Positions 1-7,855 of a stretch of DNA of 7,855 nt are shown in pieces; the stretch's first letter is position 1, and each line of letters begins with the position of its first letter. A program made the translations under genes and the position numbers. The notes under the pieces are model-generated. The model saw only the letters and a program-made list of their open reading frames with translations. It had not been told where the DNA came from and searched no databases. Source of the stretch: a virus (lineage: Duplodnaviria > Heunggongvirae > Uroviricota > Caudoviricetes); the IMG/VR virus record IMGVR_UViG_648276668_000013. One strand, written 5' to 3'.

Positions 1-567
1 ATGCTTATTGGCTATGTACGCGTGTCAACAAATGACCAGAACACCGATTTGCAACGTAATGCACTGAACTGCGCGGGATGTGAGCGGATTTTTGAGGACA
101 AAATCAGTGGCACTAAGTCCGACAGACCGGGGCTTAAAAAACTGCTCAGGACACTATCGGCAGGAGACACGCTGGTTGTCTGGAAGCTGGACAGGTTGGG
201 GCGCAGTATGCGGCATCTTGTTACGCTGATAGAAGAGTTGCGCCAGCGCGGCGTGAATTTCCGAAGCCTGACTGACAGTATTGATACCAGTACCCCAATG
301 GGCCGTTTCTTTTTTCATGTCATGGGTGCCCTGGCTGAAATGGAACGCGAACTGATAGTTGAACGTACCAGGGCAGGGCTGGCTGCAGCTCGTGCTAAAG
401 GCAGAGTAGGTGGACGCCGTCCTAAGTTGACTACCGAACAGTGGGCACAGATTGGGCGTTTACTCGAGGCCGGAGAATCAAGACAGCGTATTGCACTGAT
501 TTTTGATGTAGGCGTTTCTACCATTTATAGAAAATTTCCGGCAAATAAGAGCAATGAATCTCCCTGA
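1..567 (+). CDS. Serine-recombinase DNA invertase, Gin/Pin/Hin/Cin family (188 aa); the window begins exactly at its ATG
   Basis: N-terminus MLIGYVRVSTNDQNTDLQRNAL carries the catalytic-serine motif and the whole protein is near-collinear with Mu Gin and e14 Pin as recalled (GDTLVVWKLDRLGRSM, DTSTPMGRFFFHVMGALAEMERELI, C-terminal helix-turn-helix around GVSTIYRKF). Length is typical for this family. Confidence 0.9.
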   Translation: MLIGYVRVSTNDQNTDLQRNALNCAGCERIFEDKISGTKSDRPGLKKLLRTLSAGDTLVVWKLDRLGRSMRHLVTLIEELRQRGVNFRSLTDSIDTSTPMGRFFFHVMGALAEMERELIVERTRAGLAAARAKGRVGGRRPKLTTEQWAQIGRLLEAGESRQRIALIFDVGVSTIYRKFPANKSNESP

Positions 568-615
568 ATCAGCATTATTTTGATTATTCCTGCAAGCGGA
601 CAAATACCGTCATTT

Positions 616-633
616 TGTGTGAATAACGGTACA
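616..633 (+). promoter_or_regulatory. Candidate Ogr-dependent late promoter element (PF-like): TGTgtgaataacggtACA, a TGT-N12-ACA dyad with extended arms TTGT/ACAA
   Basis: Exact match to the TGT-N12-ACA dyad that P2 Ogr/Delta-family activators bind, centred about -55 in P2 late promoters. It lies 85 bp upstream of the FI start codon, consistent with a transcription start near 680. It sits in a 142-bp AT-rich intergenic gap and an ogr homolog is encoded in the same window. No convincing -10 hexamer could be identified by eye. Confidence 0.45.
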
Positions 634-709
634 ACTGCGCTTAGCTGTTTGTCGGACACAATCACTTCAACATAGGGCGAAGCCTAATCCAATCAGGAGG
701 TTCGCCACT

Positions 710-1881
710 ATGGCTCAGGATTACCACCACGGAGTGCGCGTTGTTGAAGTCAACGAAGGCACTCGATCCATTACCACGGTGAGCACCGCCATCGTGGGTA
801 TGGTCTGCACGGGCGATGATGCCGATGCAAAAATGTTTCCTCTTAATAAACCCGTGCTGATCACTGATGTGCTGACTGCCAGCGGTAAAGCGGGTGAGTC
901 TGGTACTCTGGCCCGTTCGTTGGATGCCATCGCTGACCAGGCAAAACCCGTGACCGTTGTTGTGCGTGTGCCGCAGGGTGAAACGGAAGAAGAAACCACG
1001 ACCAATATCATCGGCGCAGTGACTGCTGAAGGTAAAAAACAGGCATGAAAGCTCTGTTATCTGCCCAGTCACAGCTCGGCGTTAAACCGCGCATTCTCGG
1101 CGTGCCTGGCCACGATAACAAAGCCGTTGCGACTGAGTTGCTGAGCGTGGCGCAAAGCCTGCGTGGGTTTGCTTACCTGTCAGCGTATGGCTGCAAGACA
1201 GTGCAGGAGGCGATCACTTACCGCGAAAACTTCAGCCAGCGCGAAGGGATGCTGATCTGGCCTGACTTTACTGGCTGGGACACGGTGCTGAATGCCGAAG
1301 CAACGGCATATGCCACCGCCCGTGCGCTCGGTCTGCGCGCCAAAATTGATGAGCAGACTGGATGGCACAAAAGCCTGTCCAACGTGGGCGTGAACGGTGT
1401 CACCGGAATTTCTGCTGATGTGTTCTGGGATCTGCAGGACCCGGCAACCGATGCAGGTCTGCTGAACCAGAACGACGTCACCACGCTTGTGCGCAAGGAT
1501 GGTTTTCGCTTCTGGGGTTCCCGCTGTCTGAGCGATGATCCGCTCTTTGCCTTCGAAAACTTCACCCGCACGGCGCAGGTGCTGACGGACACGATGGCAG
1601 AAGCGCACATGTGGGCGGTGGACAAACCGCTGAACCCGTCGCTGGCGCGCGACATTATCGAAGGTATCCGCGCCAAAATGCGCAGCCTGGTCAGTCAGGG
1701 CTATCTCATTGGTGGTGATTGCTGGCTGGACGAGTCGGTGAACGATAAAGACACGCTGAAAGCCGGGAAGCTCACCATCGACTACGACTACACGCCAGTG
1801 CCGCCACTTGAAAACCTGATGCTGCGTCAGCGCATCACCGATCAGTACCTGGTGAATTTCTCCAGCCAGGTCAGCGCGTAA
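710..1881 (+). pseudogene. FI: Phage contractile tail sheath protein (P2 FI homolog), interrupted by a frameshift; ORF fragments 710..1048 (112 aa) and 1045..1881 (278 aa)
   Basis: Both fragments are collinear with P2 FI as recalled: N-terminal [16 protein letters not shown]...[11 protein letters not shown]-terminal [11 protein letters not shown]...[22 protein letters not shown]. The combined length (about 390 aa) matches an intact sheath. The reading frame breaks in the A6 run at 1034-1039; one additional A would give the contiguous junction [17 protein letters not shown] ribosome-binding site at 695-700, 9 nt before the ATG at 710. Confidence 0.85.
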
Positions 1882-1890
1882 GGGGACAAT

Positions 1891-2406
1891 ATGGCTTTAC
1901 CACGCAAATTAAAACACCTGAACCTGTTTAACGACGGGAACAACTGGCAGGGGATCGTTGAGTCGCTGACGCTGCCGAAATTCACCCGCAAATATGAGAA
2001 GTATCGCGGCGGCGGTATGCCGGGGGCGGTGGATGTGGATTTGGGACTGGATGACAGTGCACTGGATACAGAATTTTCCATTGGTGGTACTGAGCTGCTG
2101 CTGTTTAAGCAGATGGGCAAAGCCACGGTGGATGGCATCCAGCTGCGCTTTACCGGCTCTATCCAGCGTGACGATACCGGGGAAGTGCAGGCTGTGGAGC
2201 TTGTGGTGCGTGGACGTCACAAAGAAGTGGATTCCGGCGAGTGGAAGACGGGCGAAAGCAACACCACCAAAGTGACCAGTACCAACAGCTACGCGAAGCT
2301 GACCATCAATGGTGAGGTGCTCTATGAAGTGGACCTTATCAACATGGTGGAAATTGTGGACGGTGTGGACCTGATGGAAGCGCACCGCAACGCCCTCGGC
2401 CTCTGA
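1891..2406 (+). CDS. FII: Phage tail tube protein (P2 FII homolog), 171 aa
   Basis: MALPRKLKHLNLFNDGNNWQG...KYEKYRGGGMPGAVDVD...RDDTGEVQAVE...RNALGL is collinear with P2 FII as recalled. AGGGGA ribosome-binding site at 1881-1886. It lies immediately downstream of the sheath gene, the conserved sheath-tube order. Confidence 0.92.
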   Translation: MALPRKLKHLNLFNDGNNWQGIVESLTLPKFTRKYEKYRGGGMPGAVDVDLGLDDSALDTEFSIGGTELLLFKQMGKATVDGIQLRFTGSIQRDDTGEVQAVELVVRGRHKEVDSGEWKTGESNTTKVTSTNSYAKLTINGEVLYEVDLINMVEIVDGVDLMEAHRNALGL

Positions 2407-2460
2407 TGTATCTGAACGGCGAGGGATACCGCGCCAGAACCCAATTTACAGGACAACAAA

Positions 2461-2763
2461 ATGAGCGATAAGCAGACTGAAAAGACCATTCAACTGGATA
2501 CCCCTATCAAGCGCGGTAAAACGGAAATCACCGAAATTGTGCTGCGTAAGCCGCAGTCCGGTGCGCTGCGCGGCACGCGCCTGCAGGCCATTATGGATAT
2601 GGATGTGAACGCGATGATGACCGTGATCCCCCGCATTTCCAGTCCGGTACTGACTGCACAGGAAATCGCAGAGATGGACCCGGCAGATCTCACCGCTATG
2701 TCGGTTGAGGTTGTCACTTTTTTGTTGAAGAAGTCGGTGCTTGCCGGTTTACCGACAGCCTGA
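2461..2763 (+). CDS. E: Tail assembly chaperone gpE (P2 E homolog), 100 aa; zero-frame product
   Basis: Small ORF between the tube and tape measure genes, the conserved position of the tail chaperone. It contains the slippery heptamer TTTTTTG near its 3' end, as in P2 E. Call rests on size, position and motif rather than strong recalled sequence identity. Confidence 0.8.
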   Translation: MSDKQTEKTIQLDTPIKRGKTEITEIVLRKPQSGALRGTRLQAIMDMDVNAMMTVIPRISSPVLTAQEIAEMDPADLTAMSVEVVTFLLKKSVLAGLPTA

Positions 2764-2897
2764 CGGTTGACGATCTGGTGGCAGACATCGCCACCATTTT
2801 TCACTGGCCGCCATCCGTTACTGACGTTATGCCGCTGACCGAAGTGCTGGAATGGCGGTATAAAGCGATTCAGAGAAGCGGGGCCAACGATGAGTGA
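2461..2897 (+). CDS. E+E': gpE+E' tail assembly chaperone fusion made by -1 programmed ribosomal frameshift at 2718-2724 (predicted about 145 aa); absent from the six-frame ORF track
   Basis: T TTT TTG sits in the E frame (codons TTT 2719-2721, TTG 2722-2724). After a -1 slip the frame stays open from 2724 to the TGA at 2895-2897, reading VEEVGACRFTDSLTVDDLVADIATIFHWPPSVTDVMPLTEVLEWRYKAIQRSGANDE, and ends just inside the start of T (ATG 2890). This copies the P2 E/E+E' arrangement. Confidence 0.65.
2718..2724 (+). other. -1 programmed ribosomal frameshift slippery heptamer T TTT TTG
   Basis: Direct reading of the sequence; X XXY YYZ-type heptamer in the gpE zero frame, with an open -1 frame downstream to 2897. 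Confidence 0.65.
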
Positions 2898-5800
2898 TAA
2901 CAACCTGCGGCTGCAGGTCATTCTTAATGCGGTTGACAAACTCACCCGCCCATTCCGTGTTGCACAGGCCAGTTCGAAAGAGCTGGCTGGCGCAATCAGA
3001 AACTCCCGTGACGCATTAAAGCAACTCAATCAGGCGGGTAATAGCCTGGAAAAATTTCGCAAGCTGCAGGCTGATAACAAGAAGTTAGGCGACAGGCTGA
3101 ACTATGCCAGACAGAAGGCTAATTTGCTTAGCTCTGAGCTGGAGGCGATGGAACAACCATCACAACGGCACCTTGTGGCTTTAGGTCGGCAAACGCTGGC
3201 AGTCCAACGCCTGGAAGAACAGCAAAAATATTTGCAGAAGCAAACGGCGCTTGTGCGTGCAGAACTGTACCGGGCGGGAATTTCTGCGAAAGATGATGCG
3301 GGAGCAACTGCCCGTTTAGCCCGTGAAACATCACGTTATAACCAGGAACTGTCGAAACAGGAGGCGCGGCTGAAGCGACTGGGGGAAGCTCAGCGCAGGA
3401 TGAATGCAGCGCGTGCCAGTTATGCCCGTTCGCTGGAGGTGCGCGATCGCATCGCAGGAGCCGGAGCAACCACCACGGCTGCAGGGCTGGCAGTGGGTGC
3501 ACCAGTAATGGCGGCGGTAAAAAGCTATACCAGCATGGAAGATGCCATGAAAGGTGTGGCAAAGCAGGTCAATGGTCTGCGTGACGATAATGGCAACCGC
3601 ACTGCACGTTTTTATGAAATGCAGGATGCCATCAAGGCTGCCAGCGAACAGTTGCCGATGGAAAACGGTGCGGTGGATTTCGCTGCACTGGTTGAAGGTG
3701 GTGCGCGCATGAACGTCGCAAACCCTGACGACAGCTGGGAAGACCAGAAACGTGACCTGCTGGCCTTCGCCAGTACGGCAGCAAAGGCGGCAACAGCCTT
3801 TGAGCTGCCAGCGGATGAACTGTCAGAAAGTCTGGGGAAAATCGCCCAGCTCTACAAAATCCCTACCCGCAATATTGAACAGCTCGGCGATGCGCTGAAC
3901 TATCTGGATGATAACGCCATGTCGAAAGGGGCAGACATCATTGATGTCATGCAACGCCTGGGCGGTGTGGCTGATCGTCTGGATTATCGTAAAGCGGCGG
4001 CTCTGGGTTCCACCTTCCTGACATTGGGCGCTGCGCCAGAGGTTGCAGCCAGTGCAGCAAACGCGATGGTGCGTGAATTGTCCATTGCCACCATGCAAAG
4101 CAAGAGTTTCTTTGAAGGGATGAATCTGCTGAAACTCAATCCTGAAGTGATTGAAAAGCAGATGACGAAGGATGCGATGGGAACCATCCAGCGCGTGCTG
4201 GAGAAGGTGAACGCACTGCCGCAGGACAAGCGTCTGTCTGCCATGACCATGTTGTTTGGTAAAGAGTTTGGTGATGACGCGGCGAAACTGGCAAACAACC
4301 TGCCGGAACTGCAGCGCCAGCTAAAACTGACAGCGGGCAATGATGCGCTCGGTTCCATGCAGAAAGAATCCGACATCAACAAAGACTCACTTTCTGCTCA
4401 GTGGTTGCTGGTCAAAACCGGAGCGCAGAACACCTTCAGCAGCCTGGGCGAAACGCTGCGCCAGCCGCTGATGGATATTCTGTACACGGTGAAAAGCATC
4501 ACGGGGGCGTTGCGCCGCTGGGTGGAAGCTAACCCGGAACTGACAGGCACACTGATGAAAGTAGCGGCTGTTGTGGCTGCGGTTACCGTAGGCCTCGGCA
4601 CCTTAGCGGTGGCGCTGGCTGCAGTTCTGGGGCCGCTGGCAGTGATCCGTCTGGGATTCTCTGTGCTGGGTATCAAAACGTTACCTTCCGTTACGGCAGC
4701 AGTAACTCGAACCAGCAGCGCGTTGTCCTGGCTGGCTGGCGCACCACTGGCACTGCTGCGACGCGGGCTTGCTTCATCGGGCAACGCCGCAGGTTTACTT
4801 ACTGCGCCGTTGTCGTCTTTGCGCCGCACGGCATCACTGACGGGAAATGTCCTGAAAACTGTAGCAGGTGCGCCGGTTGCACTTTTGCGGTCTGGATTAT
4901 CCGGTTTACGTGCTGTTGCTGTGATGTTTATGAATCCTCTGGCGGTACTGCGCGGTGGACTGGCCGCCGCAGGCACGGTGCTGCGAGTACTGGCATCTGG
5001 TCCACTGGCGATGCTGCGCGTTGCCCTGTATGCCGTATCTGGTCTGTTAGGTGCTCTGCTCAGTCCGATAGGTCTTGTGGTTACTGCACTGGCGGGCGTG
5101 GCGCTGGTTGTGTGGAAATACTGGCAACCCATCACCGCATTTCTTGGTGGCGTGGTGGAAGGATTCAAAGCGGCGGCAGGTCCCGTCAGTGCAGCATTCG
5201 AACCGCTTAAGCCCGTGTTCCAGTGGATTGGCGACAAAGTACAGGCGCTGTGGGGCTGGTTTACTGATCTGCTGACGCCCGTTAAGTCGACCTCTGCCGA
5301 ACTGCAGAGTGCAGCGGCAATGGGGCGGAGATTCGGGGAGGCACTGGCGGAAGGGCTGAATATGGTCATGCATCCGCTGGACTCACTGAAATCCGGCGTT
5401 TCCTGGTTGCTGGAGAAGCTCGGCATTGTCAGTAAAGAGGCCGCAAAGGCAAAACTGCCGGAAAGCGTGACGCGTCAGCAACCTGCGACGGTGAATGCAG
5501 ACGGTAAAGTGATGATGCCATCGGGTGATTTTCCGTCATGGGGATATGGCTTTGCGGGGATGTATGACAGCGGCGGCTATATCCCGCGTGGGCAGTTTGG
5601 CATCGTCGGTGAAAACGGGCCGGAAATTGTTAACGGCCCGGCAAACGTGACCAGCCGGAGAAATACAGCTGCACTGGCTGCCGTTGTCGCCGGAATGATG
5701 GGTGTTGCTGCCGCGCCAGCAGAGCTTCCACCGTTGCATCCTTTGGCGCTTCCCGCGAAAGGCGGTGAAGCAATTGTGAGTCGCGCAGCCACTGTGCCGC

Positions 5801-5967
5801 CTGTTTACCGGATTGAAGCACCGATGCAGATCATCATCCAGACACAGCCAGGACAAAGTGCGCAGGATATTGCGCGGGAGGTGGCCCGCCAGCTTGATGA
5901 ACGTGAACGCAGGCTGAAGGCAAAAGCCAGGAGTAACTACAGCGATCAGGGGGGATACGACGCATGA
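2890..5967 (+). CDS. T: Tail tape measure protein (P2 T homolog), 1025 aa
   Basis: Largest ORF in the operon, directly after the E/E' frameshift cassette. N-terminal region is coiled-coil-like and rich in Q/E/K/R/L/A. Central hydrophobic block carries repeated G-P-L-A-x-L-R-x-G-L units (about 4620-5040). Position and architecture are typical of Myoviridae tape measure proteins. Confidence 0.9.
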   Translation: MSDNNLRLQVILNAVDKLTRPFRVAQASSKELAGAIRNSRDALKQLNQAGNSLEKFRKLQADNKKLGDRLNYARQKANLLSSELEAMEQPSQRHLVALGRQTLAVQRLEEQQKYLQKQTALVRAELYRAGISAKDDAGATARLARETSRYNQELSKQEARLKRLGEAQRRMNAARASYARSLEVRDRIAGAGATTTAAGLAVGAPVMAAVKSYTSMEDAMKGVAKQVNGLRDDNGNRTARFYEMQDAIKAASEQLPMENGAVDFAALVEGGARMNVANPDDSWEDQKRDLLAFASTAAKAATAFELPADELSESLGKIAQLYKIPTRNIEQLGDALNYLDDNAMSKGADIIDVMQRLGGVADRLDYRKAAALGSTFLTLGAAPEVAASAANAMVRELSIATMQSKSFFEGMNLLKLNPEVIEKQMTKDAMGTIQRVLEKVNALPQDKRLSAMTMLFGKEFGDDAAKLANNLPELQRQLKLTAGNDALGSMQKESDINKDSLSAQWLLVKTGAQNTFSSLGETLRQPLMDILYTVKSITGALRRWVEANPELTGTLMKVAAVVAAVTVGLGTLAVALAAVLGPLAVIRLGFSVLGIKTLPSVTAAVTRTSSALSWLAGAPLALLRRGLASSGNAAGLLTAPLSSLRRTASLTGNVLKTVAGAPVALLRSGLSGLRAVAVMFMNPLAVLRGGLAAAGTVLRVLASGPLAMLRVALYAVSGLLGALLSPIGLVVTALAGVALVVWKYWQPITAFLGGVVEGFKAAAGPVSAAFEPLKPVFQWIGDKVQALWGWFTDLLTPVKSTSAELQSAAAMGRRFGEALAEGLNMVMHPLDSLKSGVSWLLEKLGIVSKEAAKAKLPESVTRQQPATVNADGKVMMPSGDFPSWGYGFAGMYDSGGYIPRGQFGIVGENGPEIVNGPANVTSRRNTAALAAVVAGMMGVAAAPAELPPLHPLALPAKGGEAIVSRAATVPPVYRIEAPMQIIIQTQPGQSAQDIAREVARQLDERERRLKAKARSNYSDQGGYDA

Positions 5968-6449
5968 TGATGGTGCTGGGATTTTACGTGTTTATGCTGC
6001 GCACCGTGCCGTATCAGGAGCTGCAGTATCAACGCAGCTGGCGACATGCGGCAAACAGCCGGGTAAACCGACGTCCGTCCACGCAGTTTCTGGGACCGGA
6101 CAACGACATGCTGACGCTTTCTGGTGTTCTTATGCCGGAGATAACAGGTGGCAGGCTGTCGTTGCTGGCACTGGAGCAGATGGCAGAACAGGGGAAAGCA
6201 TGGCCCCTGATTGAAGGCAGCGGCACCATTTACGGCATGTATGTGATTGAGGGAATAAATCAGACTAAAACGGAGTTTTTCCGCGATGGTATGCCGCGCC
6301 GGATTGAGTTCACCCTGTCGCTCAAACGGGTGGATGAATCCCTGTCCGATATGTTCGGTGATCTCAGTACGCAACTGAATAATCTGCAGGATACGGCAAC
6401 GTCTGCCTTAAGCGATATCGGTAAAACGGTGGGAGGGCTGCTGTCGTGA
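5964..6449 (+). CDS. U: Tail protein gpU (P2 U homolog), 161 aa
   Basis: MMMVLGFYVFMLRTVPYQ...WPLIEGSGTIYGMYVI...FTLSLKRVDESL is collinear with P2 gpU as recalled. GGGGGGA ribosome-binding site at 5948-5954. Its start overlaps the T stop (ATGA at 5964-5967). Confidence 0.88.
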   Translation: MMMVLGFYVFMLRTVPYQELQYQRSWRHAANSRVNRRPSTQFLGPDNDMLTLSGVLMPEITGGRLSLLALEQMAEQGKAWPLIEGSGTIYGMYVIEGINQTKTEFFRDGMPRRIEFTLSLKRVDESLSDMFGDLSTQLNNLQDTATSALSDIGKTVGGLLS

Positions 6450-7546
6450 ATTTCAGCTCTGAACTGCTTAACAAAGGCAACAAAACTCCGGCATTCAGCA
6501 TCAGTATTGAGGGCAGGGATATCACCACTGTGCTGGATAACCGCCTGATGAGTCTGACGCTGACGGACAATCGGGGCTTTGAAGCGGACCAGCTTGATCT
6601 GGAACTGGATGATGCCGACGGAAAAATCGTGCTGCCGCGCCGAGGTGCGGTCATTACGCTGGCGCTAGGCTGGAAGGGGCAGCCGCTTTTCCCGAAAGGG
6701 ACATTCACGGTGGACGAGATTGAACACACTGGCGCACCGGACCGCCTGACTATCCGGGCGCGAAGTGCTGATTTTCGTGAAACGCTGAATACCCGCCGTG
6801 AAAAGTCGTGGCACAAGACCACTGTCGGGGAAGTGGTCAAGGAAATAGCCGCGCGTCACAAGCTGAAGATGGCACTGGGTAAAGACCTGTCGGATAAGCC
6901 CGTGGAACATATAGACCAGACTAATGAGAGTGACGGCAGTTTTCTGATGCGGCTGGCGCGCCAGTACGGTGCTATTGCGTCAGTGAAAAATGGCAATCTG
7001 TTATTCATCCGGCAGGGACAGGGTAAAAGCGCCAGCGGTAAACCACTGCCGGTGATCACTATCACACGTAAGGACGGCGACAGTCACCGCTTTACCCTGG
7101 CAGATCGCGGAGCCTATACGGGCGTAATTGCCAGCTGGTTGCATACCCGCGAACCCGCGAAGAAAGAAAGCACCACGGTGAAGCGTAAGCGCAGAACTAA
7201 GAAGCAGAAGAAAGAACCGGAAGCGAAGCAGGGCGATTACCTGGTGGGGACGGATGAAAACGTGCTGGTACTTAATCGCACTTATGCCAACCGGAGCAAC
7301 GCCGAACGAGCGGCGAAAATGCAGTGGGAACGCCTGCAACGCGGTGTTGCGTCATTCTCGCTACAACTGGCGGAAGGGCGGGCAGATCTCTACACGGAAA
7401 TGCCAGTGAAAGTCAGTGGCTTTAAGCAGCCGATAGATGATGCGGAATGGACCATTACGACTCTGACGCATACCGTCAGCCCGGATAACGGTTTTACGAC
7501 CAGTCTGGAGCTTGAAGTGAGGATTGATGATTTCGAAATGGAATGA
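6446..7546 (+). CDS. D: Tail protein gpD (P2 D homolog, late control gene D family), 366 aa; GTG start
   Basis: Conserved position after U with a length typical of the gpD family. GGGAGGG ribosome-binding site at 6431-6437, 8 nt before the GTG at 6446, which overlaps the U stop (GTGA). Identity rests mainly on synteny and size. Confidence 0.88.
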   Translation: MNFSSELLNKGNKTPAFSISIEGRDITTVLDNRLMSLTLTDNRGFEADQLDLELDDADGKIVLPRRGAVITLALGWKGQPLFPKGTFTVDEIEHTGAPDRLTIRARSADFRETLNTRREKSWHKTTVGEVVKEIAARHKLKMALGKDLSDKPVEHIDQTNESDGSFLMRLARQYGAIASVKNGNLLFIRQGQGKSASGKPLPVITITRKDGDSHRFTLADRGAYTGVIASWLHTREPAKKESTTVKRKRRTKKQKKEPEAKQGDYLVGTDENVLVLNRTYANRSNAERAAKMQWERLQRGVASFSLQLAEGRADLYTEMPVKVSGFKQPIDDAEWTITTLTHTVSPDNGFTTSLELEVRIDDFEME

Positions 7547-7636: not shown

Positions 7637-7855
7637 ATGATGATTTGCCCACTGTGTGGAAGTGCCGCCCATACTCGCAGCAGTTTTCAGGTATCTTCAT
7701 TGACCAAAGAGCGTTACAACCAGTGCCAGAACATTAACTGCAGCCATACTTTTGTTACCCATGAAACTTTTGTTCGTTCGATTGCAACGCCAAAAGAGTC
7801 AAATCCGGTTCAGCCGCATCCAATGAAATCAGGACAGGTGGCGCTCTCTCTTTGA
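7637..7855 (+). CDS. ogr: Ogr-family zinc-finger late transcriptional activator (72 aa from ATG 7637; the ORF track's upstream ATG at 7604 is probably not the real start)
   Basis: MMICPLCGSAAHTRSS...KERYNQCQNINCSHTF...PHPMKSGQ matches P2 Ogr as recalled, including the C-x2-C...C-x4-C zinc finger and a 72-aa length. GGGGAGA ribosome-binding site at 7621-7627, 9 nt before the ATG at 7637. It occupies the P2 position immediately after D. Confidence 0.85.
   Translation: MMICPLCGSAAHTRSSFQVSSLTKERYNQCQNINCSHTFVTHETFVRSIATPKESNPVQPHPMKSGQVALSL

Follow-up and report, generated by a model that had tools for sequence, protein, structure and literature searches.

The closest described relatives of the locus analysed here are the DNA invertases of the Din family, namely Gin of Mu with its G segment, Cin of P1 with its C segment, Pin of e14 with its P segment, and Hin of Salmonella. 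The element e14 is a lambdoid remnant, while Hin controls a flagellin promoter and not fibre ends, and the hin gene lies inside the segment that it inverts. For the Hin enhancer, a spacing of about 48 bp between the Fis sites has reportedly been known since the work of Johnson and colleagues in 1987. Basic positions in helix B, together with a Gln, an Arg and a Leu in helix 1 of the DNA-binding domain, are conserved uniquely in the invertases that depend on Fis and an enhancer (PMC3798978). In P2-like prophages, coexisting orientations have been measured in clonal cultures for two loci of EPEC E2348/69, although the invertases tested there are only 78–80% identical to the one described below (Goldberg et al., 2014; PMC4272514). 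A 2024 preprint describes the Z/fun position of P2 as a variable hotspot filled with many unrelated cargo genes, in which a DNA invertase is often encoded and the adjacent genes invert.

We analysed a stretch of viral DNA of 7,855 nucleotides (the window; IMG/VR record IMGVR_UViG_648276668_000013), for which the original prediction, made from the letters alone, was that a Gin/Pin-type invertase replaces the Z/fun moron of P2 and serves an invertible tail-fibre switch just upstream. In our assessment it is highly probable that window 1–567 encodes the invertase of a tail-fibre inversion switch, carried by a P2-like (Peduoviridae) prophage that sits beside ybjL in E. coli. The switch that was originally deduced is borne out by the crossover sites, by fibre cassettes that join in frame and by the presence of both orientations within the same prophage lineage (L092/L093).

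Identity of the invertase

The open reading frame at 1–567 (+ strand, ATG start) encodes a protein of 188 aa, in which Pfam recognises a Resolvase domain over residues 3–135 (E 2e-53) and HTH_7 over residues 138–181 (E 1e-15). Such an architecture, with an N-terminal catalytic domain and a C-terminal helix-turn-helix, and a length within the ~185–195 aa range are those of small serine recombinases. The VRVSTNDQ motif, described originally as intact along with the catalytic serine, indeed contains Ser9, and the rest of the active site is present as well, the complete set being Y5, R7, S9, Q13, R42, D64, R65 and R68. The residues contacting the enhancer and Fis are all kept, both the basic ones (K46, K47 and R50, corresponding to Hin 47, 48 and 51) and those of the DNA-binding domain (Q150, R153 and L154, corresponding to Hin 151, 154 and 155). 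The closest solved structures are of Mu Gin (3UJ3 and 4M6F, E 8e-93), colinear with our protein over residues 1–184. Our protein is 78% identical to P1 Cin and 74% identical to Mu Gin, and copies 100% identical to it are found in E. coli PK8568, in the isolated phage Cartapus and in E. coli GF66.2. As judged from these sequence features, window 1–567 encodes a small serine recombinase of the Gin/Cin/Pin/Hin ('Din') subclass, predicted to need Fis and an enhancer.

Could the gene nevertheless be a resolvase-type or cargo recombinase, such as a co-integrate resolvase or a hotspot moron, unrelated to the fibres and only by coincidence adjacent to them? The slot does coincide with the variable Z/fun hotspot and its many unrelated cargo genes, and small serine recombinases have their Pfam domains in common. 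However, the gamma-delta and Tn3 resolvases match the protein far less well than Gin does (best E 2e-34 vs 8e-93), and the invertase-subclass residues listed above, which are absent from resolvases, are present here. Considered together with the gix-like inverted sites, whose distance from the ATG is fixed in many genera, and with the precise inversion observed at these sites (both detailed below), these differences leave the coincidental-cargo reading with hardly any credence. The invertase shares its strand (+) with the tail genes, as had been claimed, and each of the latter was confirmed by Pfam. A scan of the source scaffold upstream of the invertase gave no sigma-70 consensus promoter.

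Crossover sites and fibre cassettes upstream of the window

Scaffold GL884207.1 of assembly GCA_000176615.2 contains the whole window without a single difference (positions 7112–14966 of the source locus, which we refer to as L091), and both the tape-measure protein and an unusual 278-aa sheath fragment are encoded on this scaffold. The best megablast match of the whole window to complete E. coli genomes is 97.6%. Upstream of the window the source locus contains a fibre gene and, in the opposite orientation, a further fibre C-terminus. It also contains a pair of inverted gix-like sites of 26 bp, each of them an imperfect palindrome built of a 12-nt half-site, a 2-nt AA/TT core and another 12-nt half-site. 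The left site, TTCTCGCATACC-TT-GGTTTGGGAGAA, lies inside the fibre gene H (L091 5606–5631), and the right site, TTCTCCCAAACC-AA-CGTTTAAGAAAA, lies just upstream of the invertase (L091 7031–7056), with its core 68–69 nt before the invertase ATG. The invertible segment and its crossover sites are thus immediately upstream and outside of the window, as was originally expected, and 55 nt separate the end of the right site from window position 1. In the source scaffold neither of the 26-bp sites is damaged, and the same sites are found in the related loci L001–L006, L089, L092 and L093. Within the window there is no crossover site, the best 26-mer scoring 14/24 vs 19–22 for the real sites.

In the source assembly the segment contains a scaffold gap of 692 N (L091 5984–6675), and its two fibre-assembly chaperone genes are unrepresented there. 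The gene arrangement can be followed in E. coli PK8568, which is 99.5% identical over window 1–1100, and in phages 500465-1 and Cartapus. Upstream of the invertase in all three, H and an assembly gene point forward, while a second assembly gene and a fibre C-terminal fragment point in reverse, and a 26-bp inverted repeat bounds the cassette region. The fibre-end cassettes here are of the Gp53-like_C and collar-fibre types. Exchange between the cores in silico keeps H open, changing its length in these three relatives from 504 to 468 aa, from 502 to 467 aa and from 473 to 471 aa, and the fibre frame stays open after a flip in silico in L001 (the PK8568 locus), L002, L003 and L093. The alternative fibre 3' ends flanked by inverted gix/hix-like sites, for which a search had been suggested, therefore exist, with sites of 26 bp and with cassettes that join in frame once the segment is turned.

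Across the species-representative loci with full upstream sequence, which come from many genera, the right site stands at a fixed 68, 79 or 89 nt from the invertase ATG. Since most homologues of the enzyme sit in other phage types, we drew on this species-representative set only when analysing the enzyme, the sites and the enhancer.

Inversion of the segment between related prophages

The window itself carries no sign of inversion, as both sites and the cassettes lie outside of it. Inversion becomes visible when two other assemblies, L092 and L093, are compared, in which the same prophage is likewise integrated beside ybjL and encodes an identical tape-measure protein. The segment has the orientation of the source in L093 and is inverted in L092. 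When the 1,840-bp segment of L093 is flipped, L093 agrees with L092 at 3,200 of the 3,201 positions over 4000–7200, vs 1,859 without the flip, and the fibre protein swaps between 507 aa in the L093 orientation and 468 aa in that of L092. In more distant E. coli genomes (L004–L006) the segment is inverted relative to L001, with the breakpoints at the site cores. Of 5,426 complete E. coli genomes, 400 have one junction type and 38 the other, counts that are inconclusive alone because the cassettes are mosaic and that are superseded by the exact flip test. Going by these assemblies, precise inversion at the cores occurs between near-identical prophages, the pair that shows it being L092 and L093.

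Draft genomes show a further pattern around the right site. At 20 of the 79 species-representative loci (L010–L088) the draft contig breaks off at the right site or next to it, 63–130 nt ahead of the invertase ATG, which amounts to a strong enrichment of assembly breaks there. Since such breaks are the expected behaviour of an assembler when reads support both orientations, they are consistent with reads of both orientations being present in the sequenced cultures.

Genomic slot and distribution

In the P2 record fun(Z) is found between G and the pF promoter/FI, on the strand opposite to the tail genes. The invertase occupies the same slot before FI, so its assignment to the Z/fun position was correct. 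The invertase-then-sheath layout (at least 80% of window 1–1100) is present in 666 of 5,426 complete E. coli genomes (~12%) and in 19 phage records, and in only 10 of the 72 species-representative loci that have enough downstream sequence. The novelty implied by the original prediction was overstated, since the arrangement is common, at that frequency in complete E. coli genomes, and has been published. The tail-fibre switch is already known, and the EPEC work shows such switches to be active (PMC4272514).

A probable recombinational enhancer within the 5' coding sequence

In the P1 record, nt 19–90 of cin are marked as the enhancer that serves Cin-mediated inversion, and window 1–150 aligns without gaps to both cin and gin. 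By homology to the cin enhancer and by synonymous constraint, we place a probable Fis-dependent recombinational enhancer at window 19–90, to which no strand is assigned. The original prediction that such an enhancer would reside in the first ~200 bp of the gene holds as far as the 5' coding region is concerned, but the element is narrower than that. The motif alone cannot place the Fis sites: in a scan with a degenerate Fis consensus 13 positions within nt 1–200 score at least 8/11, a level reached by 4.6% of the positions in the whole window, which is why homology and synonymous constraint were used instead.

As the DNA of the enhancer doubles as coding sequence for the most conserved part of the protein, constraint beyond the protein level was tested, with synonymous divergence normalised per amino acid over 84 unique homologous genes. 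The ratio of observed to expected divergence is 0.09–0.19 in codons 9–12 (nt 25–36), which form the lowest four-codon window out of 126, and 0.18–0.32 in codons 25–26 (nt 73–78), with a raw value of 0.23 for Cys27. It is ~0.5–1.5 in the codons between these two islands and 0.71–1.48 throughout codons 31–135. Within codons 1–135, synonymous divergence is suppressed in two islands only, both inside the enhancer, at nt 25–36 and nt 73–81, about 48 bp apart. The candidate distal Fis core, TGTCAACAAATGACC, spans 23–37 (centre at nt 30) and agrees with 9 of the 11 specified consensus positions; the candidate proximal core, GCGCGGGATGTGAGC, spans 71–85 (centre at nt 78) and agrees with 8 of the 11. 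Their centres are 48 bp apart, and so the suggested check for paired Fis sites at about this spacing yields a pair of candidates, with the caveat that motif matching on its own is not discriminating. We infer that the Fis-binding parts of the enhancer are located at the two islands, with Fis binding itself being predicted.

Two individual positions deserve mention. At nt 75 (codon 25, GCG), a synonymously constrained position in the candidate proximal core, the window has G and the consensus of the 84 homologues has A. The Gly codon 4 (nt 10–12, GGC) shows an observed/expected ratio of 0.30 and lies outside both islands; its constraint may be an effect of translation initiation or of the enhancer flank.

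Spacer, tail operon and sheath frameshift

Between the stop codon of the invertase and the sheath ATG at 710 there is a spacer at 568–709 (+ strand), of exactly the 142 bp originally given. Its description as AT-rich applies only moderately, as it has 43.7% GC compared to 50.4% in the invertase gene and 55.1% in the rest of the window. PK8568 and Cartapus have the same spacer or a nearly identical one. In megablast, the match to P2-like phages without this invertase, for example Klebsiella phage 4LV2017, begins at 709, the start of the sheath, and therefore the invertase and the 142-bp spacer behave as exchangeable hotspot cargo.

Scans of the spacer found no terminator-like site and no sigma-70 consensus on the + strand, with only one weak match on the minus strand, and none of the Rfam families scored up to its threshold anywhere in the window. 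At 616–633 (+ strand) the spacer contains a TGT-N12-ACA dyad, TGTGTGAATAACGGTACA, which by its spacing is a candidate Ogr activator site of the P2 pF type; in P2-like phages the activator dyad of such a late promoter is expected near -55. The centre of the dyad is ~85 nt before the sheath ATG, and the annotated pF activator site of P2 is ~82 nt before FI. A similar dyad is found at -90 in L015, a more distant invertase-then-sheath locus, and a dyad of this kind arises in 4% of spacer shuffles. The spacer aligns only poorly in sequence with the pF region of P2, and the two are comparable in geometry alone. With this modest support, the spacer probably holds the Ogr-dependent late promoter of the sheath/tail (F) operon.

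The genes that follow, all on the + strand, have the order of the P2 record (FI-FII-E-T-U-D-ogr), the gene calls on the source scaffold concur, and the closest phage records are classified in Peduoviridae. The tail sheath FI (710–1881) is followed by the tube FII (1891–2406; Phage_tube), E (2461–2763; Phage_TAC_7), the tape measure T (2890–5967, assigned from its reading frame and Pfam), U (5964–6449; P2_GpU), D (6446–7546; Phage_GPD) and ogr (7637–7855; Ogr_Delta). The sheath is split into two reading frames (710–1048 and 1045–1881, 112 and 278 aa) with the Pfam sheath domains divided over both, owing to a one-base deletion that leaves A6 at 1034–1039 where relatives have A7. One added A restores a sheath protein of 390 aa.

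These defects invite the question of whether the prophage is defective and the invertase in it a leftover, with broken tail genes and a useless switch, so that the enzyme would be effectively an orphan or act in trans on other prophages. The source fibre gene is frameshifted as well (A6 for A5, near L091 4649), and there is the gap inside the segment. However, the source scaffold differs from the near-identical L093 by exactly three indels, all of them single-base changes in poly-A runs, one each in the genes for fibre and sheath and one in the host gene ybjL, and this is a pattern of error and not of decay. Moreover, both 26-bp sites are intact in the source, every tail ORF in the window other than the sheath is full length, and the invertase protein is identical to that of an isolated phage, Cartapus. 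On balance, the leftover reading seems to us distinctly improbable. Because all three indels fall in poly-A runs and one of them in a host gene, the sheath and fibre frameshifts are most likely poly-A sequencing errors. Real pseudogenisation or a programmed frameshift in the sheath was considered and rejected in favour of a homopolymer sequencing error (A6 vs A7, with indels restricted to poly-A).

Proposed mechanism

In the mechanism that we propose for the tail-fibre switch, two inverted 26-bp sites, one inside H and the other before the invertase, bound a segment of ~1.84 kb just upstream of the window. The segment contains two alternative fibre C-termini in opposite orientations, each accompanied by its own assembly-chaperone gene. 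By analogy with the characterised family, invertase dimers on both sites would synapse with the Fis-bound enhancer at nt 19–90, and cleavage at Ser9 would then be followed by strand exchange at the 2-bp cores. As in that family, the inversion would depend on the host protein Fis and on supercoiling of the DNA. A population of lysogens could in this way release phage of either receptor specificity. The module as a whole, cassettes and invertase together, fills the variable hotspot where P2 has Z/fun.

The biology is that of a standard bet-hedging host-range switch, present in about one in eight complete E. coli genomes, and involves no new principle. The value lies rather in annotation: the switch explains why the fibre region is hard to assemble, with the gap in the source and the draft contigs ending at the right site, and fibre gene calls depend on the orientation that an assembly happened to capture. 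The analysis of synonymous constraint is a small bonus, as it needs nothing beyond comparative sequence to place both Fis-binding parts of the enhancer.

A separate observation concerns the metagenome contig L094 (sample ERZ27273442), where over 1–7100 Mu-like baseplate genes and a short fibre are joined to the exact invertase and the P2 tail operon. The 100% identity between this contig and L093 sets in exactly at the right crossover site. The contig is either a recombinant between prophages or an assembly chimera. Cross-prophage recombination is conceivable since the Mu-like, e14-like and P2-like prophages of E. coli share nearly identical crossover sites. Still, we regard it as unlikely that the invertase also recombines sites of different prophages in one chromosome and that L094 is one such product and not an assembly chimera. 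If true, recombination of this sort would lead to large chromosomal inversions or to hybrid tail modules.

Comparison with known systems

The P2 Z/fun hotspot provides the slot, between the fibre-assembly gene G and the pF promoter/FI, but in P2 itself fun(Z) is on the opposite strand and there is neither an invertase nor any alternative cassettes. Salmonella Hin belongs to the same Din family, has a two-Fis-site enhancer in the 5' part of hin and shares the Fis-contact residues (PMC3798978). Pin of e14 with its P segment is again of the Din family, and the inverted repeat reported for it, AAACCTTGGTTTGGGAGAAGG (PMC4272514), matches the inner half-site here.

By identity (78%), the closest characterised invertase is P1 Cin, and its annotated enhancer (nt 19–90) aligns ungapped to window nt 19–90. 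The layout differs, however: cin is on the other side of its segment relative to the constant part of the fibre, the C segment is ~4.2 kb long and cixL overlaps the 3' end of cin. Mu is closer in this respect. Its Gin is of the same enzyme subclass, with 74% identity and an end-to-end alignment to the sequences of the Gin structures, and the order of elements is the same, from the fibre constant part through a cassette with its chaperone, an inverted chaperone and cassette, and the crossover site to the invertase. In both cases the invertase is outside of the segment and the 5' coding region aligns with the enhancer region, and the distance from the G boundary to gin is 67 nt vs 68–69 nt here. 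The differences are in the host phage (Mu-like vs P2-like), the length of the segment (~3 kb in Mu vs ~1.84 kb), the AA/TT core dinucleotide and the cassettes, which are other fibre ends.

The EPEC E2348/69 prophages come from the same type of phage as the prophage described here. One of their loci is a three-site shufflon, unlike our two-site segment. The other (NC_011601.1, 2977580–2979467) has the same invertase-then-sheath layout, with cassettes and invertase followed by the P2 sheath, tube, E and T. Its invertase is a paralogue of 78% identity, its sheath is 68% identical and the prophage is truncated upstream, but its right site, TTCTCCCAAACCAACGTTTAAGAAAA, is identical to the one here and stands likewise 68 nt before the ATG.
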